Source: Ktedonobacterales bacterium
GTDB taxonomy: Bacteria > Chloroflexota > Ktedonobacteria > Ktedonobacterales > JADMIN01
Assembly (NCBI GenBank): GCA_030167145.1
Contig: CP126532.1
Span: forward strand, 1,857,052 to 1,921,051
Length of the DNA stretch: 64,000 nucleotides
Direction of reading: 5' to 3'
The position numbers and the translations under genes are program-made. Below the pieces are notes generated by a model, which was not told the origin of the DNA, did not search any database, and saw only the letters and a program-made list of their open reading frames with translations. Shown in pieces: positions 22,024 through 60,639 of this stretch; position 1 is the first letter of the stretch; each line of letters opens with the position of its first letter.

Positions 22024-22036
22024 GACGTCGTGCGCA

Positions 22037-22609: not shown

Positions 22610-22629
22610 GGCATCCCTCCCGCGAACAG

Positions 22630-23875: not shown

Positions 23876-23884
23876 GGAGAGCAA

Positions 23885-45157: not shown

Positions 45158-45273
45158 TGCTGTGCTGTTCCCTCTCGACTCACGTACTCGTTCACGCGGC
45201 GTTATGCGCGTTTATACGCGCGCGTATAAGTGCGTGTGAATGTTTATACGCGCGCTCATAACCGCTCATAAGT

Positions 45274-47385
45274 CTATTTGCCCTTCACGTAGCCCTTCGC
45301 GCGCAGTTGCTGGCCGATGGAGGACCAGTCGTATTTGCCGGTAAGCAGTTGTTGCCATGCTGCTTTGGCTTCTTTCCATGGTATCACTTCGCAGAAGGGG
45401 GCGATGTTGAGGAGCACGCCGTCGTTGAGGTCGGGGGTGAGGTAGTGGCGGGCGGCGCGGTCGAGGGCGTCGTGAAATTCGCGCAGGTCGGCGAGCAGGG
45501 TTTCTTGGCGGTCCAGGGCCTGGGCGGCGCGCCGGGCTTCGGGGCCGGTGGGTCCGGCGGCGGCTTTGGCGGCGTGTAGTTCGTCGAGGCGCTGTTCTTC
45601 GAGCCGGATTTTGGGCAGGAGGTGGAGGGTGAGGGCTTTGAAGATGAGGTCGGCGTCGAGGCGGTGGTAGTAGAGCCAGATGGCGTAGTGGCGTTTGGGG
45701 GATTGCAGCAGCCAGTAGATGGGGGCTTTGCGGCGGCTCTTGGAGTAGCGCGAGATGTGGAAGTCGAAGAAGAGGCGCGGGTTGCGGAGATATTCGCGCA
45801 GGTCGCGCACGCCGAGCAGCGCGCAGGCTTCGGCTTCGATGGCGCTGGCGCGGTCGCCCCAGAGGTGATCGAGGACGAGGCGGATGCGGCGCAGGAGGTC
45901 GTTGGGGGCGTCGGGGTCGTCTACGAGGATGCCGTCCCAGGCGATACCTAACCCCCCGGCCCCCTTCCCTGCGAGGGAAGGGGGAGTGGAGGGGGCGTCG
46001 AGCGTGGTGGGGTCGGGGAGGGTGATGGCGTTGGGACGGGTGCGGAGCCAGGCTTCGCTGGCGATGTGGTCGCGGGTGGCGGGGAGGCCGTCGTGGCCGA
46101 CCAGCGCGCCGGGGGCGCAGACGGGCAGCGGGGCGAAGGGGTCGGCAAGGCGCGGGGCGAGCGTGGGGTCGTGGGCGATACGCACGTCCCAGCGGCCAAA
46201 GGCGCAGCCGAGGGCGTACATGATGAGGTTGGCAGCTTCGGTGCGGGCGCGCTGAAGTCCGTTGCCGGCATTGGCGTTGGATTGAGCATCGCGCTCTTCG
46301 TCGCGGTCGTCGCCAGCTTCGTCGCCAGTCGCCACGGCTCCTACTTCCGCTGGCGGCGAAGATGCCTCGATATGGGCGCGATCATCGGGGGAGAAGCCGT
46401 AGAGGGCGTAGCAGCGGTCATCTATCTCGCGCTGGATGGTGGCGAGGCGCTGGACGCGGGCGGCGTCTGCGTTGGCGAGGAGGCTGAGGGCGGCGGCGAG
46501 GGTGGGCTGGGCGCGCAGGCGGACGAGCGCGGGGACGGTGAAGGGGTGGGTGACTTCGTCGTCGCGGTCAGATTCCCGCTTGCAGTCGTGGGCCTCGCGG
46601 GCGAGGGTGGCGAGGGTGTGCGCGTCATCGGCGCTGAGGTCGGGGACGGGGGTACGCTGGACGACACCGACTTCGTAGGAGCCGAACGCCATTTGCATCG
46701 AGAGCAGCGCGCCGAAAGAGGCTGAGTTGACCATGGCGAGCAACGCGAGGAGATCTGTCGGCTCGTCATCTGAGACGAATAGGGCCGGGCCTTTGTCGGC
46801 GAAGATGCAGCCAGCGGGCATGACGCGCACGCTGAAGCCGCCTTGCGTGCGGCGGGGGTAGGTGAGGCCGGGGCGGAAGTAGTAGTCGAGGGCCTCGGGG
46901 CGCTCTATCTCGCGACCGGGGCGTCCATAGAAGTTGCGGTAGGTGTGGCGCGATTCGTCCCAATCAGCAAGTAGGTGCATATCGTAGTAGAAGGGCGAAT
47001 AGCTACCGCCTTTCGCAAATGTTGCCCATCTGATGTTCCAGCTAACTGTAATGGGTAATACCTCCCACCACGTTCGAACACGTTGGAAATCATCGCCAGT
47101 GCTTGAGCCTCGGCGCGCCTCACGTCCATCCCCTTCGAAGGGCGGGAGTTCGGTGAAGAGTCGGCGTACATCCTCGCTGACCCAGTAGGCGAAGGGGGAG
47201 CCGGGGATCTGGCGGAAGGAGGCGGGGTCGAGGGTGAAGAGACCTAACCCCCCCAGCCCCCCTTCCCTACGTGGGAAGGGGGGAGTGGTGGCGGCGCGGT
47301 GGGCGGCGGTGGCGGCGCGTAGGGCGGCGGGTTTGTCGTCGGCGGCGAGGAGGCGGATGAAGGTGGTGGTGTGGGGCATGGTCAT
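45274..47385 (-). CDS. pglX: PglX-like protein, C-terminal half (specificity and C-terminal domains) of the split second paralog
   Basis: It is colinear with residues after the MTase core of the full-length paralog (FRQIPGSPFAYWV vs FDAIPGSPWVYQI; KAPIYWLLQSPKRHYAIWLYYH vs KRPIYWLLQSPKRGYGVYLFAE; DLNDGVLLNIAP vs ELDDGILINLAP). Confidence 0.8.
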   Translation of the reverse strand: MTMPHTTTFIRLLAADDKPAALRAATAAHRAATTPPFPRREGGLGGLGLFTLDPASFRQIPGSPFAYWVSEDVRRLFTELPPFEGDGREARRGSSTGDDFQRVRTWWEVLPITVSWNIRWATFAKGGSYSPFYYDMHLLADWDESRHTYRNFYGRPGREIERPEALDYYFRPGLTYPRRTQGGFSVRVMPAGCIFADKGPALFVSDDEPTDLLALLAMVNSASFGALLSMQMAFGSYEVGVVQRTPVPDLSADDAHTLATLAREAHDCKRESDRDDEVTHPFTVPALVRLRAQPTLAAALSLLANADAARVQRLATIQREIDDRCYALYGFSPDDRAHIEASSPPAEVGAVATGDEAGDDRDEERDAQSNANAGNGLQRARTEAANLIMYALGCAFGRWDVRIAHDPTLAPRLADPFAPLPVCAPGALVGHDGLPATRDHIASEAWLRTRPNAITLPDPTTLDAPSTPPSLAGKGAGGLGIAWDGILVDDPDAPNDLLRRIRLVLDHLWGDRASAIEAEACALLGVRDLREYLRNPRLFFDFHISRYSKSRRKAPIYWLLQSPKRHYAIWLYYHRLDADLIFKALTLHLLPKIRLEEQRLDELHAAKAAAGPTGPEARRAAQALDRQETLLADLREFHDALDRAARHYLTPDLNDGVLLNIAPFCEVIPWKEAKAAWQQLLTGKYDWSSIGQQLRAKGYVKGK
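45947..45986. repeat. Palindromic element (GGKG family), single copy, in-frame in the pglX C-half
   Basis: CCTAACCCCCCGGCCCCCTTCCCTGCGAGGGAAGGGGGAG, with a 10-11 bp hairpin core. It is translated as PPSLAGKGAGGLG. Confidence 0.85.
47243..47284. repeat. Palindromic element (GGKG family), single copy, in-frame in the pglX C-half
   Basis: CCTAACCCCCCCAGCCCCCCTTCCCTACGTGGGAAGGGGGGA, translated as PPFPRREGGLGGLG. Confidence 0.85.
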
Positions 47386-47451
47386 GGTGGTGTCCTGGTG
47401 TTAGAATGAGCGCAATCCAGTGATCTAGAGGGGGAAGGTTGGAGCCTTCGG

Positions 47452-47478
47452 CGGCCCTGTATAGGGCCGTTTTTGTTT
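47452..47478 (+). terminator. Plus-strand rho-independent terminator inside the BREX operon gap
   Basis: CGGCCCT, loop GTAT, AGGGCCG, followed by TTTTTGTTT on the plus strand, which is antisense to the operon. Confidence 0.5.
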
Positions 47479-47496
47479 ATGCGAGTTGTGACTGAT

Positions 47497-47928
47497 CTAG
47501 GGAATGTACCAGCCTCTACGCGAGCGGCGGCCTTTGCCATATTGCGCTGGGATGCCGATGCCTAGCTCGTCTTCGGTGCGGTGCGTGCGGTGGGTGCGGG
47601 TAATGTTGGTGTCGCGGTATTCGGTCTCCCAGTCGTGGTGTTTGTGGCGCGGTCGGTCAGGCTTTTTGCGCGTGCGCTTCGCCGGTGGTCGTGGCTGGGC
47701 GGGACGGGTGAACCAGTCGGTGATGCCTCGCGCGGGCTTGGTTTCGAGTCCGGCGGGCGTGGGCAGCCCAGGGCCGGTCACGTAGTAGAAGCAGTGTGTG
47801 CCTTTCGCTGGCTGCTGCCGGAGCTTGTCCGCGTGGGTGGTGGCTTCGGCGAGCGTCTTGAAGCTGGCGGCTAGCTTATGCTGGTCCCCGATGCGGCGGT
47901 AGACCGAGTATTTGCTCATGGTACCCAT
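47497..47928 (-). CDS. Small basic hypothetical protein inserted between the two pglX halves
   Basis: RBS GGAGAGGA precedes ATGGGTACCATG. 143 aa. The structured-looking N-terminal ~55 aa are followed by a strongly basic tail (KRTRKKPDRPRHKHH...GKGRRSRRGW). Confidence 0.6.
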   Translation of the reverse strand: MGTMSKYSVYRRIGDQHKLAASFKTLAEATTHADKLRQQPAKGTHCFYYVTGPGLPTPAGLETKPARGITDWFTRPAQPRPPAKRTRKKPDRPRHKHHDWETEYRDTNITRTHRTHRTEDELGIGIPAQYGKGRRSRRGWYIP

Positions 47929-47997
47929 CCTCTCCGCGAGTTCAAGGGCGAACGTCTGTCGCGATCATGCCAACAGTATGAGTATGGCGACGATAGT

Positions 47998-50358
47998 TCA
48001 TGGGTTTTTCTCCAGAACGTAGGCGGCGGTTTCGACCATGGCGGTATCGAGGACGCCGTAGCCGAGGTCGGCGAGGGCGATGGGGCGGGCTTCGGTGAGC
48101 AGGATGTCTTCGCGCCACTTCTGGAACGAGGTGAGGAAGAAGCCGGTGCGCGAGGTAATGGCGCCGAGGCGTCCGCTGGGTTCGAGCAGGGCGAGGCCGC
48201 GTTCGACGAAGGCGGCGTAAAGATCATTTTTGGTGCGGGGATAGGTTTTCTCGATGTAGGGCTTGGCGGGGGCGCTGGGTTCGCCGAACGGGGGATTCAT
48301 CAGTACGACGCTGTAGCACTTCTCCAGCAGTTCGATGAGCGCGAAGCCACGGGCGGCGTCCTCGGCGAAGAGGTGGCGAGTGTAGTCGTCGTCGCTGGTG
48401 GTGGCGTCTTCGGCAAAGCGGCGCAAGGCGGCGAGGACGCGCGGCTCGGCCTCGGTTTCGTAGAAGCGCGCGTCGGAGACACCTTCGTAGTTGAGCGTCT
48501 GCTGTTGTGGTGGCTGCCCCTGCGCGAAGAGGGTAAGCTGGACGTTGCCACCGCCGGTTCTGATCCACTCGCGTTTGGCGTTGGCGATCTCCTGGCGCAG
48601 GGCGACCTCGACCTGGAGCAGCGAGCCAGCCTCACCGGCGAGGCGCATCTCACCCCATATATCGCGGACAAAGGGGTCGAGCGCGGGCGGATCGAGGGTC
48701 TTGGTGAAGGCGTCGAGCAGGTCACGCTCGCCGGGCATTGGCTCGGCATAGACGAGATTGGCGCGGCGGATGGGCGGGCGCTGGTCGCGCGGGAGGCTGA
48801 GCGCGGCGTATTCGCGCTGGGCGCGCAGCCAGAGGGCGAGCGCGGCGATCTGGACGGCGCGGAGGTCAATATCTACGCCGTGCAGGTTGTGGCGTAAGAT
48901 CAGGGCGGGAACGGCGGCTTGATACGCGGGGAAGTCGCTGGCGAACTCGCTCTGGAGCGCGGGGCCGAGGTCATCATCTGCCCAGGCTTCGTGATAGATG
49001 CGCACGAGCAGGTCGAAGCAGTAGAGCAGGAAGTGGCCGCTGCCGCAGGCGGGATCAAGGATACGTAGTTCGCGGGGGTCGCGCTTGGCGCGATGGGGGA
49101 TGATTTCGACTTCGCGATTCCACGCCTCGCAGATGGCGCGATGGAGTGCCCGCCAGTAGTCCAGGTCTTTGCCCTCTGGCGTCTCGCCGAAGTGATGCCA
49201 GCGGCGCTGCTCAAAGAAGAGACAGAGGCGTAGCTCTTCGAAGCTGCCGTTGATATTGCCCGTCTCGACGTATTCTTGCTGCTTGTCGTTCGCAATGGAA
49301 GCGACCATATCGAAATCGCGCGCTTCCGCAGATGTATCGTGCGCCAGGTGTGTCTGGGCGTAGGCATAGCCGTCTACCGTGAGCGCATAGCGCATTATGG
49401 CGTCAACAGAGGTTGCGGCGGGATTGGGGCGGGTCCACAGCTCTCCACCACCCTCGCCCGGCATCACCCACGCGTCCTGTTCGGCATTGAACATGAGCGG
49501 CTCGTGCTGACCACGGCGCAGCCAGATGGGGTGTGGGGTGATGAGCATCGTTTCACAGAGGGTGGCGAGGCTGGTGTGGCCGTGGGTCATCTCCCACCAG
49601 AGGCGCCCAAGCGTGTTATCTGCCAGGAATTCGACGACGTAGCGCGGGGTGTAGAACTGATTGCGGAAGGCTAACTCGTAGCTGTTGCGCGGGGCCTGGC
49701 TGGCTTTGCGCGCCTCGTCGCGTAGCTCTTTGGGGGTGAAGTACTGGTAAATCCAGCCGATGGTCTCGTCGGCGTCCCAGACGCTGGCTAGCTCGGCATC
49801 GTTGAGGAGGGCGAGCACGTCTTCGAGCACGCGCTGTGGCGGGAAGAGCCGGTTGGCGGGGTCGTGCGGCGAGAAGAGGGCGGGCAGCTCGCTGGCCAGG
49901 GTCTGCCCAGTCCATTCGAGGAAGTGGCGATAGGCGAGATCCTGGCGGCCAGCGGACCAGAGGGTTTCTTCGCCGGGATTGTCGGCGAGATAGAACTTGA
50001 AGCCGTTGCTGTTGAGGCTACGGGAGACGGTCTCGCGGATGAGCTTGCGGCGTTCGAGCAGCTTGTAGGCGCAGAGGCGATTGAGATGCGTGAAGGCGAC
50101 TTCGCGGATAAGCTGAGCGACGGCATCGTGCGCGGAGAAGCGGCGGGCGCCGAGGTGGGCGAGATACCGCACGACCTGCGCGCGATAGGCGAGGTCGGCG
50201 GGGGAGAGGTGGGCCATGCGCGCGGCTGGCTCGACTGCGCCGTGGCGGTGGATGCCAAACTGGCCTTCGAGTAGCTCGGCGACGGTGTCTTCGAGCAGCT
50301 TGCGGCACTGTGTGACGGCGAGGCGCAGGGTGTTGCGGATAGATTTATCGAGTGTCAT
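47998..50358 (-). CDS. pglX: PglX-like N6-adenine methyltransferase, N-terminal half of the split second paralog
   Basis: N-terminal helical domain (REVAFTHLNRLCAYKLLERRKLI; DETIGWIYQYF). MTase motif I is ILDPACGSGHFLLYCFD and motif IV is VLMNPPFGEPS. It ends right after the MTase core (AAYVLEKNP*). Confidence 0.85.
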   Translation of the reverse strand: MTLDKSIRNTLRLAVTQCRKLLEDTVAELLEGQFGIHRHGAVEPAARMAHLSPADLAYRAQVVRYLAHLGARRFSAHDAVAQLIREVAFTHLNRLCAYKLLERRKLIRETVSRSLNSNGFKFYLADNPGEETLWSAGRQDLAYRHFLEWTGQTLASELPALFSPHDPANRLFPPQRVLEDVLALLNDAELASVWDADETIGWIYQYFTPKELRDEARKASQAPRNSYELAFRNQFYTPRYVVEFLADNTLGRLWWEMTHGHTSLATLCETMLITPHPIWLRRGQHEPLMFNAEQDAWVMPGEGGGELWTRPNPAATSVDAIMRYALTVDGYAYAQTHLAHDTSAEARDFDMVASIANDKQQEYVETGNINGSFEELRLCLFFEQRRWHHFGETPEGKDLDYWRALHRAICEAWNREVEIIPHRAKRDPRELRILDPACGSGHFLLYCFDLLVRIYHEAWADDDLGPALQSEFASDFPAYQAAVPALILRHNLHGVDIDLRAVQIAALALWLRAQREYAALSLPRDQRPPIRRANLVYAEPMPGERDLLDAFTKTLDPPALDPFVRDIWGEMRLAGEAGSLLQVEVALRQEIANAKREWIRTGGGNVQLTLFAQGQPPQQQTLNYEGVSDARFYETEAEPRVLAALRRFAEDATTSDDDYTRHLFAEDAARGFALIELLEKCYSVVLMNPPFGEPSAPAKPYIEKTYPRTKNDLYAAFVERGLALLEPSGRLGAITSRTGFFLTSFQKWREDILLTEARPIALADLGYGVLDTAMVETAAYVLEKNP

Positions 50359-51170
50359 CAGGAAACACCCCTCAGCGTGACGACGAGGTCGGCGTGTTGG
50401 GCGTGTTCGGCCACGAGTTCATCGAGGGCGAGGCAGATGTGCTTGATGGTATCCACGGATTGCGTGGCCCAGGAATAGCTGATCTCCTGCACCTTGCCGT
50501 CGGGGCTGGCTTGTGCGCGGTCGGCGCGGTGGACGATGTCGTTGCGGCGGCGAGTGGTTTCGTCAATGACGCTCATCAGCTCTTTCTTGTCGCGCTGGAG
50601 CTTGGCGGCGATCTGATCCCAGGGCTTTTCGAGGCTGAGCAGCGCGCCGACAACATGCACACCCTTGCGCGAACTGAGGTATTTGAAGGAGGTCTGCGCG
50701 AGGATGCGGTTGGCGATGAAGAGCGGGGCGTCGGGATCGCCGAGCAGCCGGAGGGTCTCGGAGAGCGAGAAGGTGAGGTCTTTGAAATACTCTTCGATGC
50801 TGGGATCGGGTGGCAGGAAGTCGCGCCCGCGCGCGGCGATCACCTGGGGGAGATTGGCGCGGAGCACGGATGGCAAGTAGGCGTCGAGTGCGGTGCAAGC
50901 GGCGACGACCGATTGGCGCAGCAGGTTGGCGAGCGACTGGCGTCGCAGGGCGCTCTTGGGGATCTGGGCGCTCTCGCGGACGAGGCCGACGAAGATCTCG
51001 TTGTAGATCAGCATCAGGTCTTCGTCGTGCTGGGCATGGACGATGCCGGCCAGCGCGGTGACCAGCTCGCCATCGGTCTGGATGGTCTGGCAGTCGAGCA
51101 GGCGGTAGACGCGCAGCAGCAGTTCGGCGGGGCGCATGGTGTCTTCGAATACCTGGCGTGGACTCGTCAC
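50358..51170 (-). CDS. HEPN-like (RiboL-PSP-type) protein embedded in the BREX operon
   Basis: Alpha-helical 270 aa protein with an Rx4H motif (ETTRRRNDIVHRAD) in the C-terminal third. Its stop overlaps the pglX-N start (TGATG). It lies 23 nt downstream of brxC. Confidence 0.65.
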   Translation of the reverse strand: MTSPRQVFEDTMRPAELLLRVYRLLDCQTIQTDGELVTALAGIVHAQHDEDLMLIYNEIFVGLVRESAQIPKSALRRQSLANLLRQSVVAACTALDAYLPSVLRANLPQVIAARGRDFLPPDPSIEEYFKDLTFSLSETLRLLGDPDAPLFIANRILAQTSFKYLSSRKGVHVVGALLSLEKPWDQIAAKLQRDKKELMSVIDETTRRRNDIVHRADRAQASPDGKVQEISYSWATQSVDTIKHICLALDELVAEHAQHADLVVTLRGVS

Positions 51171-51193
51171 GTGTGGCCCTCCTTCTCCTTGTC

Positions 51194-54100
51194 CTATTCG
51201 ACGATGATGCTGGCGCCCTGGGCGAGCAGCTTGAACAGTTCGTCGCGGAGCTTGTCGAGCGCGGCGTTCACGGCGGCTTCGGTGTCCAGGGAGTCGGGAA
51301 AGAATTCGGCGGCGCGCACGTGCGAGATGGCGCTCTGGCCGCGCTCCGCCGTATCGGGCGCAAGGGTCAGCTCCTGGATGCGCGCGAGCGCCTGGGATTT
51401 GAGGCCAGCGAGGGCGAGCAGGTCGGATTCGATTTGGCTGAGCGTCGCGTGGCAGTGCGGGCAGACGCTGGCCGTATCGTCGAGATGAAGACCTTCGATG
51501 CAGGCGCGCTGGGTCAGGGGATCGAGCAGCGCCGGACGGGAGGCTTCGGGCACATTGGGCCAGTTGGCGCTGCCCTTGATCGCGTCAATCGCGGCATCGA
51601 AGTGACTGTGCCGTTTCGCGTGCAGCCCCTCGTAGACATCGGCGTAGGCGGCGGCGAGCGCGCGGGTCATGTCGCGCAGGTGGGGCAAGCGCTCGTAGAG
51701 CGTGCTGTCACCGAGGATGTGCTGTATTTCCGCGGCTTTGTCGTCCAGCCCGTCGGTTGCGCCACGGGCTTGCAGGATGGGCCATTGCTGGTCGAGGACA
51801 CGCCGGGCGTCGCGGACGGTGGCGACGATGTGCTGCTCGGTCAGCGCTTCGCGGATGCGCCGGGCCTGGGCGCGCAGCTCTTTGAGGGAGGTGCTTTCGC
51901 CGGCGAGGGTGCGCACGCAATCGTCTGAGGCGGCGTTCTGGATGGCGGTGAGGGACTGGTAGTAGTCGTCGAGCAGGTCCATGCCGGGGAGGTCGTTGGC
52001 GCGGACCTCGGCGCGGGCGGGCAGCAGGAGCGCAATCTCCGCGTTGGCCAGCTTCTTCAGGCTTTCGGCGATGGCGCCTTCTTCGACATCCACCTCATCG
52101 CCGGTGAGGGTCTCGAAGCCACGCACGGCGGCGGTGAGGGTGCGCAAATCAATAGATTCGCGCGGGGTGAACGAGGCGCTGCGGAAGGCGGGGTTGGAGG
52201 TGAGCGGAGTGCGGCAGAGTGGGTCTTGCGCGTTGCGGTAGCGCCGGCCCTGATAGGTCACCTCGACGGCGCCCGCGCGCAGCAGCAGCGCCAGCACCAG
52301 CTTGATGACGTCGAGTTCCCAGCCGTAGGAAAGGCCGGTGAAGTGGGCCTCCAGCTCTTTGCCGGTGACGCGGTTGCCGTAGGAGTGCTCTTTCTTGAGA
52401 TAGTCGAGCACCTCTTTGGCGATCTCGGCGTGGACATGGGGGACGAACTTCGCGCCCTCTTTGGTGACGAGGTTGAGGCCGTGCTCGCCACCGTAGAATA
52501 CTTGCGGGAGCGCGTTGAGGTTGGCGGCTTTGAGCACTTCGTCGGCTTCGTTGCCAGTGAGGCCGGGGCGAGCGCCCATCTCGAGCTTGGGATAGAGGTC
52601 GGGGACGACGGCGTTGAAGAGATTTCGGAAGATTTCGGCGAGCGATCTGCCGAGGTCGGAGGCGTCTTTGGAGATGCCGCGAAAGATGCTCTGGCCGCGT
52701 GCGAGCGCCGCCTCCAGCTTCTCGCGCAGGCGACTCTGGTAGCGCGCTTGCTCGCGTTTCTCGGCATCGAGGAGGGGGGTAAGCTCGGCGGCACGCTCGC
52801 CCTGCGCGCCCGCCTGGCTATATTTGGCGATCATCTGGCTGGAGGCATGCACCTGATTGATCAAGGTGTCTAACTCGGCATCCAGGGCGAAGATCCAGTA
52901 GATGTCGTTGGTGTGGTCGCCCATGCGGCTCTCGCTGCGGGCGTCTTCCAACCGGCTGGCAAGCTCGGTCGGCGCGTCGGCGACGCGGAGGGTGAGCGGA
53001 ATATCGCCCGTCGCAAGGCGCACGTCGTCCATGGTCAGTCCGACCTTGAAGGTGCGCTTGAGCGGGTGCTGGTAGGTGAGCAGTTTTTGGTCGGAGAAGA
53101 TTTTTAGCAGGGACTCGCGTTGAATCTCGTTGCGCTCGCGGGGTTTGGGTTCGAGATACTGCTTGCGCTCGGTATCCCAGTTCTTCTCCTGGGCGGTGAG
53201 CAGTTTCCAGCCTTCTTCGGTATGGCGGACGAACTGCGCTTGCTCCAACCTGCGGATCGCCGCTTGTACCTGCGGCAGCGGCGCGGACGCGCCCACCTGA
53301 TCCACCAGCACGGCGGCGACGTTGGCGTCGGTGCGAGGCAGGTCGCGCACGAATTCGAGCAGGCAGAGCGCCTTGGCGACGCGGGCGGCCCAGCCGGCAT
53401 CGTCGCGGTCACTCTTGAAGCGTTCGGTGATGTCGCTGATGTCTTTCTGCTTCTCAGACGAGAGACTGCCCTCGACCAGCTCGTAGATCAGATCGAGGGT
53501 GACGAGCCGCCCGACGGGCTGCCGCGCGAGATCGGTGCGCGGCGCGGTGAGCATGGAGTGCGCTTGTTTGATGATGGTGCGGTTGCTGCCGCTGATGTGG
53601 CGCGGCGCGCCGGGTTGGGAGCGGATGCCAGTCATGATATCTATCGAGAGGTCAATGTAGTGCGGCAGGTAGGGGTAGAAGCGCACGAAGTCGTCTTCGC
53701 GCACCTCACTCTTGCGGCTGGTGCGCTCCAGATGGCAGGAGGTGTTGAGCTGGCCCTGCGCCTGGGCGAAGATCTGGCGCAGTTCGGGGACGGCGCTGGG
53801 CTTCTTATCGAGCACGCGCTTGGTGGCGACTTCGCTGATGTCGGCGGGGGTGAGGTCCACGCGATGGCGGAAGCGGTCCTGCACCATGGCGAGCTGCACG
53901 CGGCGCGAGTCGAGGGCGGAGACGACTTCTTCGAGTTTCTCCTGGCTGGTGACGATGATCCAGATGGGGGCGATGGCCTGGCGGGCGCGGATGCGGTTCT
54001 TGCTCTCCTGGCCGAAGTGTTCGACCACGGCGCGCAGATCGTTGAGCTTGTCGGCGCTCTGCGAGACATACTGGCCCACTTCGTCTACGATGAAGGTGAG

Positions 54101-54862
54101 CGCTTTGCCGGGGCGGCGGCGCGCCATTAGCTCGAAGGCGCGATCCACCAGCTTTTTCGTGTTGATGTCTGCGGTACGCCCAGCCAGTGACCGCGCCCAA
54201 GAGTCGGCGGCGGGGTAGGTGCGTGGGTCGAGTTCGTGCAGCGCGGCACTGGCGCGATTCAGCTTCGTTGCGCCAGTGCGGACAACCTCCCAGGGTGGGC
54301 CGCCGTGCGCCTGAGCACAGGCGACGAATGCGTCGAGCTGGCCATCGCGCTCAAGCTCAATTTCTAGCTCGGCGATATCGAAGTCTTCGGCGTAACCCAG
54401 CGAGCGCAAGAGCTGGGCGTAGAGAAGCTCAGTGATGCGCTCGTTATTGGTACGTGCGGAACGCTCGACCATGACATCGAACATGATGACTTCGGTGGGG
54501 ATGCGCGCGGTGATGAAGTCTACCAGTTGCGAGATGGCGGGGTCGTCAAGCTGCTGCTTAAAGAGGTCGGCGGCGCGGTGGCCGAGCACGGTGCGATTGG
54601 CGAGGACGTAGCCGAGGTTTTTGGCGAAGGAGGATTTGCCGGAGCCGAAGAAGCCAGAGATCCAGATGCCGACGCCTTCGGTGAGATCGGTGGGCGCGTC
54701 GGCCATGGCTTTGAGCAATCCGTGATAGTGTTCGCGGATGCGTTTGGTGGCGACGTATTCGGTGAGTTCACTGTAGACGGTCTTTTCGTCTTCCTGGGTC
54801 ACCTTGATGATTTCTTCGATGTGCTGGTTCAGGTCGCGGCTGAGCAGGTCTTGTATGTGCAT
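51194..54862 (-). CDS. brxC: BREX P-loop ATPase BrxC/PglY
   Basis: 1222 aa. Walker A is GIWISGFFGSGKSSFAKNLGYVL and Walker B-like is LTFIVDEVGQY. Size and position are typical of BrxC. Confidence 0.9.
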   Translation of the reverse strand: MHIQDLLSRDLNQHIEEIIKVTQEDEKTVYSELTEYVATKRIREHYHGLLKAMADAPTDLTEGVGIWISGFFGSGKSSFAKNLGYVLANRTVLGHRAADLFKQQLDDPAISQLVDFITARIPTEVIMFDVMVERSARTNNERITELLYAQLLRSLGYAEDFDIAELEIELERDGQLDAFVACAQAHGGPPWEVVRTGATKLNRASAALHELDPRTYPAADSWARSLAGRTADINTKKLVDRAFELMARRRPGKALTFIVDEVGQYVSQSADKLNDLRAVVEHFGQESKNRIRARQAIAPIWIIVTSQEKLEEVVSALDSRRVQLAMVQDRFRHRVDLTPADISEVATKRVLDKKPSAVPELRQIFAQAQGQLNTSCHLERTSRKSEVREDDFVRFYPYLPHYIDLSIDIMTGIRSQPGAPRHISGSNRTIIKQAHSMLTAPRTDLARQPVGRLVTLDLIYELVEGSLSSEKQKDISDITERFKSDRDDAGWAARVAKALCLLEFVRDLPRTDANVAAVLVDQVGASAPLPQVQAAIRRLEQAQFVRHTEEGWKLLTAQEKNWDTERKQYLEPKPRERNEIQRESLLKIFSDQKLLTYQHPLKRTFKVGLTMDDVRLATGDIPLTLRVADAPTELASRLEDARSESRMGDHTNDIYWIFALDAELDTLINQVHASSQMIAKYSQAGAQGERAAELTPLLDAEKREQARYQSRLREKLEAALARGQSIFRGISKDASDLGRSLAEIFRNLFNAVVPDLYPKLEMGARPGLTGNEADEVLKAANLNALPQVFYGGEHGLNLVTKEGAKFVPHVHAEIAKEVLDYLKKEHSYGNRVTGKELEAHFTGLSYGWELDVIKLVLALLLRAGAVEVTYQGRRYRNAQDPLCRTPLTSNPAFRSASFTPRESIDLRTLTAAVRGFETLTGDEVDVEEGAIAESLKKLANAEIALLLPARAEVRANDLPGMDLLDDYYQSLTAIQNAASDDCVRTLAGESTSLKELRAQARRIREALTEQHIVATVRDARRVLDQQWPILQARGATDGLDDKAAEIQHILGDSTLYERLPHLRDMTRALAAAYADVYEGLHAKRHSHFDAAIDAIKGSANWPNVPEASRPALLDPLTQRACIEGLHLDDTASVCPHCHATLSQIESDLLALAGLKSQALARIQELTLAPDTAERGQSAISHVRAAEFFPDSLDTEAAVNAALDKLRDELFKLLAQGASIIVE

Positions 54863-54863
54863 A

Positions 54864-55085
54864 CCTATCCCCCTGGCCCCCTTCCCTACGAGGGAAGGGG
54901 GGAATGTACCTATCCCCCTGGCCCCCTTCCCTACGAGGGAAGGGGGAAGACGGACCTATCCCCCTGGCCCCCTTCCCTACGAGGGAAGGGGGGAATGTAC
55001 CTATCCCCCTGGCCCCCTTCCCTACGAGGGAAGGGGGAAGACGGACCTATCCCCCTGGCCCCCTTCCCTACGAGGGAAGGGGGAA
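54864..55085. repeat. Tandem array of five GGKG-family palindromic elements (45/46 bp units alternating)
   Basis: CCTATCCCCCTGGCCCCCTTCCCTACGAGGGAAGGGGG(GAATGTA/AAGACGGA) x5 fills the whole gap between the DUF559 stop (55089) and the brxC ATG (54862). The last unit supplies the GGGGGA Shine-Dalgarno of brxC. Confidence 0.9.
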
Positions 55086-55088
55086 GTG

Positions 55089-55487
55089 TTAGTGTGCGGC
55101 GTCGGGCGCTGGTGGCGCTGATGTCCGACAGGCGGCGGCGATGCGTGCGAGAACGCTGGGCAGATCGCGCTGGATGTCGTGATTGGATATGCGCAGCACG
55201 CGCAATCCATGGCCGACGAGCACTTGATCTCTCTCTGTATCATACTCCACCTGCTCGTTGTGAATGCTACCATCCACTTCGACGACAAGTGCGGCTGCGT
55301 GACAGTAGAAATCCACGATAAATCCGGCGATCACTTGCTGACGCCGGAAGTGAAGCCCTTGCAAGCGATTCGCGCGCAGCCAGTGCCAGAGCAGTTCTTC
55401 CTCCTCAGTCATCGCCGCCCGAAATGCCCTGGCTTGTTCCACCTTCACTGGCGCCACTCGCTGTCCACGGACGATCTTTCGTGCCAT
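55089..55487 (-). CDS. DUF559 (Vsr/restriction-endonuclease-fold) domain protein
   Basis: LWHWLRANRLQGLHFRRQQVIAGFIVDFYCHAAALVVEVDGSIHNEQVEYDTERDQVLVGHGLRVLRISNHDI is the typical DUF559 core. Confidence 0.85.
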   Translation of the reverse strand: MARKIVRGQRVAPVKVEQARAFRAAMTEEEELLWHWLRANRLQGLHFRRQQVIAGFIVDFYCHAAALVVEVDGSIHNEQVEYDTERDQVLVGHGLRVLRISNHDIQRDLPSVLARIAAACRTSAPPAPDAAH

Positions 55488-55597
55488 ATCGCTGTATTCC
55501 TCTCTTATACTGCCCTTATACCGCCCTTATACCGCCCTTATACTGGATGGTCTTGACCTGTTTGGACTAGCGCATCGCAGCCTGTATCGGGATGCGC

Positions 55598-58500
55598 TCA
55601 CCTCTCCTCCCCCTTCCCTCCCAGGGAAGGGGGCTGGGGGGTTAGGTCCGTCTCCCCCTTCCCTCCCAGGGAAGGGGGCTGGGGGGTTAGGTCCGTCTCC
55701 CCCTTCCCTCCTAGGGAAGGGGGCTGGGGGGTTAGGTCCGTCTCCCCCTTCCCTCCTAGGGAAGGGGGCTGGGGGGTTAGGTTCTGCGCGATGGCGTAGC
55801 TCTGGTTCGCGCGGCAAGCGGCGAGGACGCGGTCGGGCCAGTAGCGCATGGCGGTGCGGGACCAGTCGTAGTCGCCGCGCTCCAGCGCCTGCCAGCATTG
55901 CCGGGGTTCGGTGGACCAGGCGGGCATGAGGGTATGAAGCGGGGCGAGGTTGATGAGGATGCCGTCGTCTAGCTCTGGCGCCCAGCCGGTCGTCTCGCCG
56001 CGCGCGTTGGGCTGGGTGGTGACGGCGGCGAGGGCTTTGTCGAAGGCTTCGAGGTCGTTGAGGGTGGATTCGAGCGCTTCGAGGGCGCGTTCGGCGCGGC
56101 GGCGCTCGGCGCCCTGGGGCAGCGCGGGCAGGCGCTGGCGCTGCTCGGCGATGTCGCGCCGGACGGAGGCGATGCGGCCGCCCAGGTAACGGCTGCCGCG
56201 CAGCAGGTGCAGGGTGTCGCGGGTGACGCATTCGGCGAAGAGGTAGACGCCGTAGCCGCGCTTGGGCGATTGCAGCAACCAGTAGATGGGGCGCTTACGA
56301 TAGCGTTTGTGGTGGTCTTTGAAGAAGTCTTTGGCGAGCCAGTCGTGCAGCGGGCGCCCGCCAGTGGCGGTGGCGAGCAGGCCCTCGACCTTATCGTCGC
56401 CGAGCAGGACTTCGAGCACGTGGGTGACGCGGGCGGCGAGGTCGTCGGGGTGGCCAGGATCGAGTACGGCGATGGGGGACCCCTCCCCCAGCCCCTCCCC
56501 CACAGGGAGAGGGGAGTTGAGAGTGAGGGGGGTAATGGCGAGGCTGGCGGCTGGGGGTGTGCCATCGGGCGCAGGGAGCGGTGCGACGCCGTTGCCAAGC
56601 GCGCCAAGGATGCCGGGGGAGAAGCGACCGAGGGCGATGCCGACGGCGTAGCTGACCCAGCGCGCGGCGAGGGATGACCTATCCCCCCCGGCCCCCCTTC
56701 CCTGGGAGGGAAGGGGGGAGAGAGAGGCATGCGCGCCGTTTGCGCAAGATTCGCCATCTGCGCTATTGATGGCATCCGCGTCCGCGTCCGCTTCTTCGTA
56801 TTTCTCCGCGTCACGATCATCGCCAGCCAGCGCCGCCGCCTCGTCTTCCTCCTCCCCCTCACGCGCCCCACCTGCTAGCGCCGCCGCCACCTCGTCTTCC
56901 TCCTCCCCCTTCCCTCCCAGGGAAGGGGGCTGGGGGGATAGGTCCGCTTCGATGGCGGCGCGGTCTGCGGGGCTGATGTCGTAGAGGCGGTAGACTTCTT
57001 CGTTTATTTCGCGCTCGATGGCGGCGAGCTCGGCGTGACGGGCGGCGACGCGGGCCAGACCATCGGGCCAGGCGGGCGGGGCGACGAACTCGTAGGTGGT
57101 CTCGTCTTCGGCGCTGTCGGCGCGGGCGAGGGCTATCGCCCGCTCGACGAGGCCGCGCAGGGTGTCGCTGGACACGGTGGGGATGGGGAGACGCTTCAGA
57201 TCGCCCAGGTAAAAGTGAAACGTTGGATTCAGCACCGCAAGTAAGTGATTAGCAACTGACGAGTTCAATATGCCAAGCAGCTTATATAAAATGCTGCTCT
57301 GCTCAGAGAAAATACAGTTGCCTGCATGATCAAAGAGAAAGCCAGCAGGCATGTAGCGTATGCTTAAACCTTTGGATGTGAGATCAGTGAAAGTCAGTCC
57401 TTGGTGGAAATAGAGTTGTCTGCTTGGAAGTTTGTTGCCTCTTTCGGAAAGAATGCGGAAGTGGGGCAAGTCGTAAGCAATTACAAATTCTTGGTTACCC
57501 CACCAGCGTCGGAACTCACCGCCCTTCATATGTGGAAACCACCGCTTCCCTGTGTACCAGGCTTCCTCGGCAGATGTGCAACCGAATCCAATACTAGAAA
57601 TGCCTACCTCCCACCAGAATCGCAAGAAACGCGAATTTCCTGATGTTGCCAGCCCTTGTCGCGGATTAGCACTATTGACAAGTTTAGGCAAATTAGCGAA
57701 GAGTGATCGTAGAGACGGGGTTATTTGGTAGACCCAGGGGGAGCCGGGGATGGCATCGAAGTCGCGCTGGCGGTAGGCGTAGACGGCGGGGTCGGTTGCG
57801 CCAGCCTGGAAGGCGGCGACGGCACGCTCGAAGCCACGGCGCTTGGCTTCGGCGTCGGGTTCGCGGACGAGGCGGATATACCTGCCGGTGGCGTGGTCGC
57901 GGCGGGCGGCGTCGGGTTCGGCGCGGAGGACGAAGAGGGTAGTGTTGACTATCTCGCCGTCGATCTCGGCAAAGGCGCGCGGGCCGACGTGGATCATCGT
58001 TTCGATGGCGGTCAGGTGGCGCAGCTTGTCGCGCAGCGCTTCGTAGCTGCTGATGAACATGAACGACTGCTGTGTAATCATCGCCAGCCGTCCGCCGGAG
58101 GCGAGCATCTGTGCGCAGCGGTCAATGAACGCGGCGTAGAGGTTGTCTTCGGATGCTGGAAATTCCACTTCCAGATATTTGCGCATGGTGGCTGACATGT
58201 TGTCGCTACCCATATAAGGCGGGTTGGCGGCGACGACATCGTAGCGGCGGAGCATCACGTCGAGCAGGCGCATGCCCTTGACGGCTTCGCCGGCGAAGTA
58301 GGCCTGGTCTATGCCTTCGCGGGCCTGCTGGCGGGCGAATTCGTCGAAGGCCTGGACGATCTGCGCTTCGAGGATGCCCCAGTATTCGTCGTCGTCGGCG
58401 TCTTCTTCGAAGAGCGTGCGCAGCTCGGGGAAGGGCAGGCGCCCCTGGCCTTCGAGGCGGAAACGCTGGCGTTCGGCCAGGATGATGGCGCGAATCTCGT

Positions 58501-59953
58501 CTTCGAGCCGCAGCAGCGAGCCAAGCTGGTTGGCGTCGCGCAGGCGCTGCCAGACGGCGCGAATCACGCGCTCGTAGATCGGGCGCGAGAACTTCGCCGT
58601 GTCAATAAACGCATCCAGACGCTTGCCGTTGAGCAGCAGCACATCGGCGCAGGCGAGGTTGCTGTGGCGGATGGTGACGTGAGGGTTAAGCGCGGCGGCT
58701 TTGAGATAGAGCGTCAGCGCGGAGAGCTGCACGGCGCGCAGGTCAATATCTATGCCGAAGAGGTTGTGCTCGACGATGGCGGCGGGAATCTCACTGGCGT
58801 CGGGCACGGGTGGCGTCGCGGGCCAGCCTGGCTCACCGGCGCGCTCGATCTCCTCCTGATACATCGCCGCGAAGAGATCGAAGGCGACCAACCCAAAGTG
58901 CATCGTGCCGCAGGCCGGATCCAGCAGCGTCATCTCCCGCACCGACCTCATTCCCTCTCCCCCCTTCCCTCCTAGGGAAGGGGGGCTGGGGGGGTTAGGT
59001 TCCGCTCCCCCCTTCCCTCCTAGGGAAGGGGGGCTGGGGGGGTTAGGTTCCGCTCCCTCCTTCCCTCCCAGGGAAGGGGGGCTGGGGGGGTTAGGTTCCG
59101 GGACGAGCGAGGTGAGGGAGTCGCGCAGGCGGCTGTCGGGGTGCATCTGGAGCCAGAGGCGGCCAAGGGAGTTTTCGACCAGCGCGCGGACAATCCAGCG
59201 CGGGGTGAAGAGTTGGGTTGCGGCGGGAATCTCGCTGGCGGTGATCTTCGCGCCTTTGTTCAGCCGGGCAAAGACCTCGGCTTTCTCCTGCTCGTTGAAA
59301 TACTGATAGATCCAGCCGATGGTTTCGTCGTCGGCCCAGGCGGGGGCAACGTCGGCGGCGTTGACCAGCGCGAGCAGGCTGGCGAGGGCGCGGGGGCGCG
59401 GGCAGAGGCGGCTGGGGAGGTCGGTGGGGTCGAAGAGCGCGCGAATCTGGCTGGCCATGGCGGCGCAGAGGTGCAGCAGGTAGTGGCGATAGGCGGTGTC
59501 GCGCGGGCCTTCGCCGAGGGCATCGAGCGGCAGCGAGCCAGATTCATAGCGGGCGTAGTCGTCTTCGTGGCCCGGCTCGGTGAGCCAGAGCATGAAGCCG
59601 CCGGACTGCTGGCCCTTGCCGACGCTGGCCTTGATGAGCTTGCGGGCTTCGAGCATCTTGAACGCGGAGACGCGGTTGAGCCAGGTGTAGGCGACCTCTT
59701 TGGTGAGCTTGGCGACGGCCTCGCGCGGGGTGAGTCCGGCGGTCTTTTCGTCGGCCAGCAGACGTTCTAAGCGGGCACGGGTGTCGCGGGCGTCGGATAG
59801 CTGCTGGATGGCGGGGAGGGTATCGGCTGGCTCGAAGCGGCCATCGCGATGCAGGCCATAGACGCCTTCGAGGAGGTCGGTTGTCTCGGTGGTGAGCAGG
59901 TGGCGGGCGTCGAGGGTGAGGTCGTGCAGGCGGGTGCGGAGCGTACTTTCCAT
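55598..59953 (-). CDS. pglX: Full-length PglX-like N6-adenine methyltransferase located between brxB and brxC
   Basis: ATG at 59953 (MESTLRTRLHDL); the longer ORF to 60520 overlaps brxB and is discounted. KEVAYTWLNRVSAFKMLEARKLI, DETIGWIYQYF. Motif I is LLDPACGTMHFGL and motif IV is VAANPPYMGSD. C-terminal KRPIYWLLQSPKRGY. It contains at least 9 in-frame palindromic element copies. Confidence 0.85.
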   Translation of the reverse strand: MESTLRTRLHDLTLDARHLLTTETTDLLEGVYGLHRDGRFEPADTLPAIQQLSDARDTRARLERLLADEKTAGLTPREAVAKLTKEVAYTWLNRVSAFKMLEARKLIKASVGKGQQSGGFMLWLTEPGHEDDYARYESGSLPLDALGEGPRDTAYRHYLLHLCAAMASQIRALFDPTDLPSRLCPRPRALASLLALVNAADVAPAWADDETIGWIYQYFNEQEKAEVFARLNKGAKITASEIPAATQLFTPRWIVRALVENSLGRLWLQMHPDSRLRDSLTSLVPEPNPPSPPSLGGKEGAEPNPPSPPSLGGKGGAEPNPPSPPSLGGKGGEGMRSVREMTLLDPACGTMHFGLVAFDLFAAMYQEEIERAGEPGWPATPPVPDASEIPAAIVEHNLFGIDIDLRAVQLSALTLYLKAAALNPHVTIRHSNLACADVLLLNGKRLDAFIDTAKFSRPIYERVIRAVWQRLRDANQLGSLLRLEDEIRAIILAERQRFRLEGQGRLPFPELRTLFEEDADDDEYWGILEAQIVQAFDEFARQQAREGIDQAYFAGEAVKGMRLLDVMLRRYDVVAANPPYMGSDNMSATMRKYLEVEFPASEDNLYAAFIDRCAQMLASGGRLAMITQQSFMFISSYEALRDKLRHLTAIETMIHVGPRAFAEIDGEIVNTTLFVLRAEPDAARRDHATGRYIRLVREPDAEAKRRGFERAVAAFQAGATDPAVYAYRQRDFDAIPGSPWVYQITPSLRSLFANLPKLVNSANPRQGLATSGNSRFLRFWWEVGISSIGFGCTSAEEAWYTGKRWFPHMKGGEFRRWWGNQEFVIAYDLPHFRILSERGNKLPSRQLYFHQGLTFTDLTSKGLSIRYMPAGFLFDHAGNCIFSEQSSILYKLLGILNSSVANHLLAVLNPTFHFYLGDLKRLPIPTVSSDTLRGLVERAIALARADSAEDETTYEFVAPPAWPDGLARVAARHAELAAIEREINEEVYRLYDISPADRAAIEADLSPQPPSLGGKGEEEDEVAAALAGGAREGEEEDEAAALAGDDRDAEKYEEADADADAINSADGESCANGAHASLSPLPSQGRGAGGDRSSLAARWVSYAVGIALGRFSPGILGALGNGVAPLPAPDGTPPAASLAITPLTLNSPLPVGEGLGEGSPIAVLDPGHPDDLAARVTHVLEVLLGDDKVEGLLATATGGRPLHDWLAKDFFKDHHKRYRKRPIYWLLQSPKRGYGVYLFAECVTRDTLHLLRGSRYLGGRIASVRRDIAEQRQRLPALPQGAERRRAERALEALESTLNDLEAFDKALAAVTTQPNARGETTGWAPELDDGILINLAPLHTLMPAWSTEPRQCWQALERGDYDWSRTAMRYWPDRVLAACRANQSYAIAQNLTPQPPSLGGKGETDLTPQPPSLGGKGETDLTPQPPSLGGKGETDLTPQPPSLGGKGEER
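55603..55782. repeat. Tandem array of four GGKG-family elements (45 bp units), inverted relative to 54864-55085
   Basis: TCTCCCCCTTCCCTCC(C/T)AGGGAAGGGGGCTGGGGGGTTAGGTCCG x4. It is read in-frame as the C-terminal tail of pglX (LTPQPPSLGGKGETD x4). Confidence 0.9.
56678..56720. repeat. Palindromic element (GGKG family), single copy, in-frame in pglX
   Basis: CCTATCCCCCCCGGCCCCCCTTCCCTGGGAGGGAAGGGGGGAG, translated as SPLPSQGRGAGGDR. A related but distinct palindrome CCCCTCCCCCACAGGGAGAGGGG lies at 56475-56516. Confidence 0.85.
56905..56945. repeat. Palindromic element (GGKG family), single copy, in-frame in pglX
   Basis: CCCCCTTCCCTCCCAGGGAAGGGGGCTGGGGGGATAGGTCC, translated as LSPQPPSLGGKGEEE. 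Confidence 0.85.
58955..59100. repeat. Tandem array of three GGKG-family elements (48 bp units), in-frame in pglX just upstream of MTase motif I
   Basis: CTCCCCCCTTCCCTCCTAGGGAAGGGGGGCTGGGGGGGTTAGGTTCCG x3, translated as PNPPSPPSLGGKGGAE x3. Confidence 0.9.
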
Positions 59954-60057: not shown

Positions 60058-60639
60058 TCACCCGTAGACTTTGACGCGATAGTTGCCCATGGCCTCGCGG
60101 TTCTTGAGATCCATGAAGCGCAGGCCGACGGTACCCTCGAGTGTGCCGGGGTAGAAGAGGATGGCGGGGACGGCGGTGCGGCGCTGCATCTCGTCGAGTA
60201 GCCGCGACATCTGGTAGATGGAGGGCGCCATGGCTGAGGCGCGGGTGAGGAAGACGAGGTCGCGCTGCGGATCGAAGGGGCGCATGCGCTCGGCCAGGGT
60301 ATCGGGCAGGGGCCGCCAGAAGGGATGGGAGAGATAGGTCGTCGCCTGCTCCTCGGCGGCGGCGAAACCACTCATGCGCTCTAGCTCTACCAGCGCATCC
60401 AGTCCTTCGGTCTGCGCGATGGTTTCCCAGAGCAGGCCAGCGAGCGAGATGGTGTGAACGCGCTTGCCGGTCTGTGCGAGACTGTCGGCGAGCAGCCGGG
60501 CGCGGCGGCGCATATCCCACTCGGCCTCTGGCTCGTAGCGCAGGATGGCGAACGGGAGGTCGGTATGGTTGGCGATGCGCATCGGCGTGGCGGTGAGGTC
60601 GCGTTCGAGCAGGTCAAAGCGGTCTTTGAGTGAGAGCAT
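60058..60639 (-). CDS. brxB: BREX protein BrxB (DUF1788)
   Basis: 193 aa with LPFAILRYEPEAEWDMRRR, VPAILFYPGTLEG and GNYRVKVY, matching the BrxB pattern. It sits directly after brxA. Confidence 0.85.
   Translation of the reverse strand: MLSLKDRFDLLERDLTATPMRIANHTDLPFAILRYEPEAEWDMRRRARLLADSLAQTGKRVHTISLAGLLWETIAQTEGLDALVELERMSGFAAAEEQATTYLSHPFWRPLPDTLAERMRPFDPQRDLVFLTRASAMAPSIYQMSRLLDEMQRRTAVPAILFYPGTLEGTVGLRFMDLKNREAMGNYRVKVYG

Follow-up and report, generated by a model that had tools for sequence, protein, structure and literature searches.

Hairpin repeats inserted in frame in the pglX genes of a Ktedonobacterales BREX locus and their association with DUF559 endonuclease genes

The window analysed here, the whole 64-kb stretch of a Ktedonobacterales genome (contig CP126532.1, positions 1,857,052 to 1,921,051 of the forward strand), contains a bacteriophage exclusion (BREX) locus in which copies of a short hairpin repeat stand in frame in both pglX genes and in arrays on either side of a small gene of the DUF559 family (Table 1). 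Based on Pfam and PADLOC matches, brxA, brxB, brxC, pglX, pglZ and brxL lie in one cluster, as in BREX type 1. The locus departs from the standard arrangement by a second, split pglX and by a HEPN-like gene, both of which are also found in L206, the locus of the closest ortholog, where the BREX genes follow the same order. The two PglX proteins of the window are 30-35% identical. The small open reading frame (ORF) that splits pglX-2 (19086-24002 for the whole split gene in L206) encodes 143 aa in the window and 357 aa in L206, with 37% identity over the shared part. Because the split and the extra ORF are conserved in two genomes, the arrangement looks, as judged from sequence, like a genuine two-PglX variant of BREX rather than a pseudogene. 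The HEPN-like gene, which lies between brxC and pglX-2 in both loci (18274-19089 in L206), may be a conserved accessory gene of this variant.

At least 16 copies of the palindromic element, four of them single and the others in arrays of five, four and three, had been counted in the initial annotation, with none in the other ~43 kb of the window. This count is borne out by a pattern search of both strands of the window (CCCTTCCCT-N4-GGGAAGGG, at most two mismatches), which finds 16 sites, each matching both strands and all located at 45962-59078, while the same search finds none in 100 dinucleotide-preserving shuffles. The 16 full copies extend over 45946-59100, and both the single copies and the arrays, the latter defined with Tandem Repeats Finder, were recovered. 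A general search of the window for hairpins with pyrimidine/purine arms gave no further copy of this type, referred to as A in the following, and one unrelated hairpin at 18360; in addition it revealed one divergent copy of a second type, B, inside pglX-1. Counted as sites, there are eight in 21 kb, with about 1.7 expected at 0.08/kb, versus none in 43 kb. Seven of the sites are intragenic and all seven lie in the two pglX genes, none being found in the 10.5 kb that the remaining genes of the locus contribute; by our estimate the chance of this under random placement over the coding sequence of the locus is ~0.004. In base composition the BREX locus resembles the rest of the window (GC 0.638 vs 0.642), and the tetranucleotide similarity of 8-kb segments is only modestly lower between the BREX side and the left side (~0.85-0.92) than within each side (0.93-0.94), values that are not diagnostic for a recently acquired island as the origin of the cluster.

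Table 1. Genes of the BREX locus and copies of the hairpin repeat (positions in the window).
Feature	Position	Strand	Remarks
BREX type 1 locus, host of all copies	40476-61432	-	brxA, brxB, pglX-1, (DUF559), brxC, HEPN-like, split pglX-2, pglZ, brxL
brxA	60614-61432	-	Pfam BrxA
brxB	60058-60639	-	Pfam BrxB; PADLOC BrxB 1.7e-29
pglX-1, BREX adenine methyltransferase, 1451 aa	55598-59953	-	Pfam Eco57I/N6_Mtase; PADLOC PglX 7e-198
DUF559 gene	55089-55487	-	Pfam DUF559
brxC	51194-54862	-	Pfam BrxC domains; PADLOC BrxC 1.5e-234
HEPN-like gene, 270 aa	50358-51170	-	weak HEPN (RiboL-PSP) match, below Pfam threshold
pglX-2, second PglX paralog, split	45274-50358	-	N-part 47998-50358; small ORF 47497-47928; C-part 45274-47385
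pglZ	42542-45157	-	Pfam PglZ; PADLOC PglZ 2.5e-102
brxL	40476-42512	-	PADLOC BrxL 1.2e-281
Single A copy, tail ACCTAACCCCCC + hairpin CCCCCTTCCCT-GCG-AGGGAAGGGGG + AG	45946-45986	+	in pglX-2 C-part; minus-strand peptide ..TPPSLAGKGAGGLG..
Single A copy, C7/C6/G6-run version	47242-47285	+	near N-terminus of pglX-2 C-part; peptide ..PPFPRREGGLGGLG..
5x A array, CCTATCCCCC tail variant, intergenic	54863-55086	+	period alternating 45/46 bp; outside brxC and DUF559 ORFs
4x A array, 45 bp x3.9, 99% identity	55607-55782	-	last ~60 codons of pglX-1: ..LTPQPPSLGGKGETD x4..EER, stop 55598-55600
Divergent B copy, tail GACCCCTCCCCC + hairpin CCCCTCCCCC-ACA-GGGAGAGGGG	56478-56516	+	in pglX-1; peptide ..SPLPVGEGLGEGS
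Single A copy	56677-56720	+	pglX-1, end of acidic linker; peptide ..SPLPSQGRGAGGDR..
Single A copy	56903-56943	-	pglX-1, start of acidic linker; peptide ..LSPQPPSLGGKGEE
3x A array, 48 bp x3.0, 97% identity	58957-59100	-	pglX-1; 8 codons upstream of methyltransferase motif I (LLDPACGTMHF); +41 aa net

The intergenic 5x array consists of a 91-bp double unit (x2.4, 100% identity), and its period is not a multiple of 3. It fills the spacer between brxC and DUF559, beginning 3 nt past the DUF559 stop codon (55089-55091) and reaching the base beside the brxC ATG (54862). The 4x array is inverted relative to it and carries the loop variants CCC, CCC, CCT, CCT along its length. The perfect identity of the 91-bp double unit and this order of loops argue that the arrays grew by tandem duplication of whole units. 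An artefact of assembly is unlikely, since the independent short-read contig L214 is identical to the window up to its end inside the first unit of the 3x array (~59071), which shows that this junction is not peculiar to one assembly, and since every host ORF is open.

The A unit is composed of a 12-nt C-rich tail, ACCTAACCCCCC, a spacer of 2-3 nt, an 11-bp hairpin with a free 3-nt loop and a final AG. Across the copies in the window the tail reads ACCTA(A/T)CCCCC(C) and the core CCCCCTTCCCT-NNN-AGGGAAGGGGG; the hairpins have a stem of 11-12 perfect base pairs and a 3-nt loop (-13.1 kcal/mol as DNA), in agreement with the perfect core described earlier. The B unit is a second, related hairpin which in most genomes is paired with an A unit, and at loci compared across species many A copies are followed by a B unit in the opposite orientation. 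When A and B are folded as one composite, their tails pair and a three-way junction results (-33.5 kcal/mol, z = -4.7). The hairpin is maintained by selection on base pairing through compensatory changes, the closing pair being T-A in 51 cases, G-C in 29, C-G in four and unpaired in one. This test was anchored on flanking bases only and is for that reason not circular.

Inspection of the A unit shows a stop codon in two of its six frames (ACC-TAA and GGT-TAG), and the four open frames encode the Pro/Gly-rich peptides LTPQPPSLGGKGE, PNPPAPFPGREGG, PSPPSLPGKGAGGLG and SPFPPREGGWG, which suit loops. Every intragenic copy had been described as a multiple of three (45 or 48 bp) without a stop codon. 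The frames are indeed open and the intragenic arrays have periods of 45 and 48 nt, but the intrinsic length of the element is 41-44 nt, 45 and 48 nt being the periods of arrays. Since the intergenic array has a period of 45/46 bp and since two of six frames carry a stop codon, the rule is a survivorship filter imposed by the host genes and not a property of the element.

The comparison of pglX-1 with 13 orthologs (53-71% identical) establishes that the added peptides are insertions, the window protein counting 1451 aa vs 1281-1333 aa in these 13 and 1270-1333 aa among orthologs in general. All 13 lack the 3x array, where the alignment shows a 41-aa gap 8 residues before motif I, all 13 lack the copy at 56677 (a gap of 8-10 aa), and all 13 lack the four-unit C-terminal tail, ending at ..SYAIAHGVEARV. 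In pglX-2, the copy at 47242 corresponds to an 11-aa gap in the syntenic ortholog of L206, and at the site of the copy at 45946 eight representatives have a shorter, unrelated segment, so that the net gain in the window is 5 aa. The BREX locus of L206 contains neither the DUF559 gene nor an A copy, and its spacer between pglX-1 and brxC is unrelated to that of the window. The possibility that the peptides represent ancestral low-complexity linkers is ruled out, because the A-type inserts are missing from the orthologous PglX proteins and from syntenic L206; the earlier claim that the copies add peptides to linkers of PglX, including the four-unit tail, thus withstands the comparison for both pglX genes.

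Two sites carry different types of element at homologous positions. Exactly at the site of the copy at 56903, L206 has a variant hairpin (GACCTCACCCCTGG + CCTCTCTCC-CTCA-GGAGAGGGG), and the B copy at 56478 in pglX-1, which takes the place of a segment of conserved length, is positioned homologously to the A copy at 45946 in pglX-2. This suggests, on the strength of the alignments, either that insertion recurred at the small number of positions where it is tolerated or that one copy was exchanged for another.

The repeat is not restricted to this locus. A scan of species-representative genomes with the exact 25-nt palindrome returned at least 120 stretches, and the ~40-nt sequence, made up of the tail ACCTAACCCCC and the 11-bp hairpin with its free loop, is present in at least five phyla including Planctomycetota and Chloroflexota. 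Across these loci the tail is conserved, though it was outside the search pattern, and the loop varies freely. The hosts among the matches listed are Nostocales, other Cyanobacteria, Anaerolineae, Ktedonobacterales, Dehalococcoidia, Gemmataceae, Desulfonema and Armatimonadota. At more than 300 bp from a seed copy the density of hairpins is 0.082/kb. Among the same listed matches, an all-against-all comparison of the ORFs lying up to 1.5 kb from the element brings out no recurrent gene family, and no Y1 transposase is found within that distance. In another Ktedonobacterales genome the element lies between GNAT and histidine-kinase genes, and also on a second contig of that genome, which encodes a CheB methylesterase and a DDE transposase as well. 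A protein search with the translated frames gave four weak matches, the query being short and biased in composition, and nothing relevant to the exact element sequence was found in the literature searched. A phage origin can be set aside, as there are only six exact matches in 2.9 million viral contigs, from which close DUF559 relatives are almost absent.

Of 74 copies in low-GC genomes, 19 are located inside long ORFs. Ten host ORFs were checked, nine of which are clear ordinary genes and one of which has no Pfam match; the genes with in-frame copies encode a Ser/Thr kinase, RluA, a P-type ATPase, asparagine synthase, UvrD, peptidase U32, an AAA-WD40 protein, an NB-ARC-TPR protein and a nonribosomal peptide synthetase. 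In four Nostocales (L035, L038, L057 and L086) an A unit stands in frame at the same place in the peptidase U32 gene, in three of the four together with a recognisable B unit, and an in-frame composite can thus persist across species. As a whole the family is not linked to defence, being dispersed beside unrelated genes and in frame in housekeeping genes. The view that the repeat is confined to, or concentrated on, a defence locus therefore holds within the window and does not extend to the family. Likewise, all copies of the window do lie in the BREX locus, but their cluster is centred on the DUF559 gene, which the initial annotation did not mention.

The DUF559 protein of the window (132 aa) is a Vsr-like protein of the PD-(D/E)XK type that matches Pfam PF04480 with E = 1.1e-33 and 115.8 bits, against a threshold of 20.6. 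All 35 residues that are invariant in its clade, D59, H63, E70 and H76 included, are kept (alignment of 30 sequences). Profile searches match it to the structural-genomics DUF559 protein PDB 3HRL (4.9e-27) and, more weakly, to the catalytic domain of the homing endonuclease I-Bth0305I (3R3P, 0.0025). Its relatives number more than 2,400 at E <= 1e-10, and in all four for which DNA was fetched A or B units lie directly beside the DUF559 gene. A systematic sample of 80 metagenomic DUF559 loci confirms the association: a pyrimidine/purine-arm hairpin lies at most 200 bp from the gene in 72 of the 80 loci, the A core is found in 51, and the density of hairpins is 2.78/kb near DUF559 vs 0.08/kb beyond 200 bp, a ~33-fold difference. 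The commonest arrangement is [A B]-DUF559-[A B] in direct orientation. The B tail, GGGGAGAGGT, resembles a ribosome-binding site and precedes the DUF559 ATG by 4-30 nt, and the A tail, whose first base keeps a constant distance to the ORF end, overlaps the last DUF559 codons. DUF559 clades partly track the type of hairpin. In the literature searched, as far as titles and abstracts tell, no paper that mentions DUF559 links it to repeats.

One DUF559 clade (L130, L133, L143 and L179) is flanked by a different family of hairpins, CCTATTCCCCC-ATTTT-GGGGGAACGG alternating with CCCCCCAACGTGGGGGGATAGG, in which the CCTAT/ATAGG motif of the tail is kept; these sequences hint that repeat and nuclease diverged together.

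Several further observations concern the surroundings of the window DUF559 gene. Lying in inverted orientation to each other, the 5x and 4x arrays form ~180-220-bp inverted repeats around the 0.5-kb DUF559 segment (54863-55782). Recombination between them would invert this segment and swap the C-terminus of pglX-1 and the leader sequences of brxC. The brxC start codon stands directly against the last unit of the 5x array (54850-54875), so that the unit tail supplies the sequence just upstream, AGGGGGATAGGT-ATG on the coding strand, and it may serve as a ribosome-binding site. The B tail occupies the same place before the DUF559 start in many DUF559 loci. At 55504-55543, immediately before the DUF559 start, CTTATACCGCC is repeated in tandem (11 bp x3.6); this stretch reads as a repeated TATAAG on the gene strand and may be a promoter or operator; a simple promoter scan found none there. 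Two features of the window are unrelated to the hairpin family: an AT-rich inverted repeat in the pglX-2/pglZ spacer (45202-45271, TTATGCGCGTTTATACGCGCGCGTATAA ..., 28-nt arms, 86% complementary), and, at the left edge of the window (388-1094), tandem repeats of 102 and 306 bp (80-88% identity) that fall within a 473-aa ORF.

The explanation that we consider probable, on balance, is that the copies belong to a selfish hairpin repeat akin to repetitive extragenic palindromic (REP) sequences and to Rickettsia palindromic elements (RPEs), that its partner gene is DUF559, and that the copies of the window are a local cluster around that gene. Within the 64-kb window the local accumulation around the resident DUF559 gene is plain to see; that DUF559 moves the repeat is suggested by the association and by family resemblance. 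Under this explanation, one DUF559 gene with its flanking arrays would have replaced the intergenic region between pglX-1 and brxC, and further copies would have landed within ~10 kb, all in the two pglX genes, the arrays expanding by tandem duplication of whole units. Only copies by which the gene stays in frame and which are read in neither of the two frames with a stop codon would have survived, with their peptides at variable, loop-like positions and at the C-terminus. DUF559 might cut at or near the hairpin and thereby drive copying, through break repair or homing from another copy or through recombination between copies. The local cluster would then reflect the resident DUF559 acting close to its own gene, and the inserts would be tolerated rather than useful. 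A more far-reaching reading can be put forward only tentatively, namely that small DUF559 endonucleases propagate a family of ~40-nt hairpin repeats that occurs in several bacterial phyla, as a second REP-like system built on a PD-(D/E)XK nuclease that routinely writes Pro/Gly-rich loops into proteins, and that the pglX arrays may also vary in copy number and so modulate BREX.

Several observations must be set against DUF559 as the mobilising partner. A DUF559 gene is present in only one of 120 element-seeded loci among the matches listed, hence its action would have to be in trans genome-wide, and a purely local cluster is hard to square with that. With its inverted A arrays and its hairpins nearest to the gene, the window departs from the commonest, direct arrangement. 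No clean insertion junction is seen, several single copies partly replacing host codons, and no target-site duplication is evident at codon-level junctions with orthologs that are 53-71% identical and too distant for exact junctions. Such a duplication, together with terminal inverted repeats matching a parent insertion sequence, is the mark of a miniature inverted-repeat transposable element. The restriction of all intragenic sites to pglX could point to targeting or selection rather than mere tolerance; either the protein, having long variable linkers, may simply tolerate the inserts, or variable linker length or phase variation may bring a benefit. Lastly, the association itself could mean that DUF559 cassettes prefer to insert into repeats, or that both share one recombination process.

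This last point leads to a serious rival, which we nonetheless hold to be rather unlikely. DUF559 would be a passenger, and the repeats would be moved by other means, such as a Y1 transposase of the IS200 type or of the REP-associated tyrosine transposase (RAYT) type, host recombination, replication slippage or an RNA intermediate; the DUF559 genes would be selfish cassettes that home into repeats or are captured between them, since a repeat presents them with numerous identical places to land and with homology at hand. That the elements far outnumber the DUF559 genes and that DUF559 is related in sequence to a homing endonuclease would both agree with this. A test for long duplications on either side of DUF559 cassettes gave a mixed result, in a sample too small to decide on a mechanism: the two B loops around a gene are the same in 6 of 11 loci (5% expected), the two A loops in 1 of 14. 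This suggests that the gene carries repeat ends of its own and inserts beside resident copies. However, neither a Y1 transposase nor any other recurrent gene accompanies the listed elements within 1.5 kb, and the constant position of the A tail at the 3' end of DUF559, as well as the partial match between DUF559 clades and hairpin types, fits a specific partnership of protein and repeat. It is less likely still that the inserts are kept because they benefit BREX, with pglX as a contingency locus whose arrays and C5-C7/G5-G7 runs vary the linkers, the tail or the on/off state and thereby tune or phase-vary methylation or defence. In the Pgl system of Streptomyces coelicolor, pglX is described as phase-variable by way of a G-tract. 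The placement of the intragenic sites, none of which lies in brxC, pglZ, brxL, brxA, brxB or the HEPN-like gene, would agree with such a role, as would the periods of both intragenic arrays, which are multiples of 3, and the lengths of the homopolymer runs, which differ among A copies with the frame kept (6/5/5 vs 7/6/6). Against this, runs of 5-7 bases are short for efficient slippage, syntenic L206 has the same gene set and no A copy, and no defence-specific role is needed, as the family inserts in frame into many unrelated housekeeping genes.

Very improbable, finally, is a unit that acts mainly as RNA, be it a small structured RNA or a hairpin that stabilises or processes mRNA, and that spread by selection for this role. 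The compensatory changes in the hairpin and the G-T pairs in some B stems would agree with it, and one B-type unit with its tail beside DUF559 (L049 5895-5952, from Tolypothrix, upstream of the gene) matches the Rfam family whalefall-1 (RF01762) right at threshold, with 37.7 bits vs a gathering threshold of 37. The whalefall-1 consensus consists of a CUCUCC...GGAGAG hairpin and a second hairpin followed by ..CAGGGUGAGGAC; it was described only from whale-fall metagenome reads and judged a likely non-coding RNA by its authors (PMC2864571). A primary role as RNA sits badly with the fact that copies in one and the same locus run both with and against the host gene, and with copies inside the coding regions of unrelated genes. 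Nor do the arrays coincide with terminator- or promoter-like signals, none being found at 54600-56000. In the Rfam search of the window whalefall-1 had no match, only chance-level microRNA matches were obtained, and no family matched the A unit. Judging from the sequence match, whalefall-1 may rather be one variant of the present repeat family than a free-standing small RNA.

If the link between DUF559 and the repeat is true, a very large family that to our knowledge is without assigned function gains a testable role. Outside REP/RAYT we know of no mobilising enzyme identified for very small hairpin repeats, and DUF559 would be a candidate for one. In-frame colonisation by palindromic repeats is common in Cyanobacteria, Chloroflexota and other phyla, so that Rickettsia is not a special case, and this matters for gene annotation and for the origin of new surface loops in proteins. 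The repeats also break short-read assemblies, as seen in L214 and in the many DUF559 homologs on contigs of less than 2 kb. PglX-1, for its part, is a natural methyltransferase with 130-170 extra residues in loops and at the C-terminus, which shows at which positions PglX tolerates insertions.

Among known systems, the attC sites of integrons are imperfect palindromes bounded by paired core sites, RYYYAAC ... GTTRRRY, and occur in arrays of ORF plus attC with an integrase nearby. The tail ACCTAAC and its complement GTTAGGT, for instance at 45946-45952 of the window, do fit the core-site consensus RYYYAAC/GTTRRRY; the B tail reads GGGGAGAGGTC. Both tails around one hairpin are found in a minority of the copies in other genomes (L048, L051, L059 and L085), most copies being one-tailed and single copies being scattered inside genes, and among the matches listed no integrase or recombinase recurs in the ORFs within 1.5 kb of the element. 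With RPEs the repeat shares, as had been proposed from the start, that a short palindromic sequence stands in frame in functional genes whose products tolerate the added peptide, and also between genes; the seven open intragenic sites in the two pglX genes and the copies in long ORFs elsewhere agree with this. RPEs measure ~100-150 bp, are confined to Rickettsia and close relatives (Rickettsiales) and have no known partner gene. The present unit differs from them in its length of 41-48 bp, its near-identity in at least five phyla, its tandem arrays and its position beside DUF559 genes, the comparison being one of length, host range, arrangement and neighbouring genes.

Elhai et al. reportedly described in 2008 the small dispersed repeats (SDRs) SDR4-6 of Nostoc and Anabaena, hairpin repeats of 21-27 nt with compensatory changes that are nested or clustered and were proposed as the smallest mobile elements. 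The likeness lies in the hairpins, and many exact matches of the present unit are in Nostocales; some of these hairpins may already be described in that study. We know of no reported link between SDRs and DUF559. The present unit spans several phyla, in contrast to SDRs, which are reported as confined to Nostocaceae (PMC5861425). The DUF559 gene itself resembles the EDxHD/Vsr-like homing endonuclease I-Bth0305I in its profile match to the catalytic domain, and both are small, selfish-looking endonuclease genes. However, the gene for I-Bth0305I lies in a group I intron of a phage, and its target is recA (PMC3239194), whereas the DUF559 genes are free-standing, embedded in hairpin repeats and almost without near relatives on viral contigs.

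A further comparison is with REP sequences and their doublets that form hairpins (REPINs), which are hairpins of 20-40 nt with a conserved unpaired tag, present in many dispersed copies and in inverted doublets or clusters, and which flank one small partner gene (PMC3116915, PMC3733652). The tags of REP sequences are GTAG or CGTC (PMC3733652), unlike the tag ACCTAACCCC of the present repeat, the tail of which reads ACCTA[A/T]CCCC in the window and in at least 120 loci. About a quarter of its copies are intragenic, its sequence is conserved between phyla rather than species-specific, and the gene that it flanks encodes a PD-(D/E)XK protein of the DUF559 family and not a Y1/HUH (IS200/IS605-like) transposase. 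What the two systems have in common is a hairpin with a conserved tag at one end, dispersed in many copies and in clusters, together with a partner gene that is flanked by the repeats.

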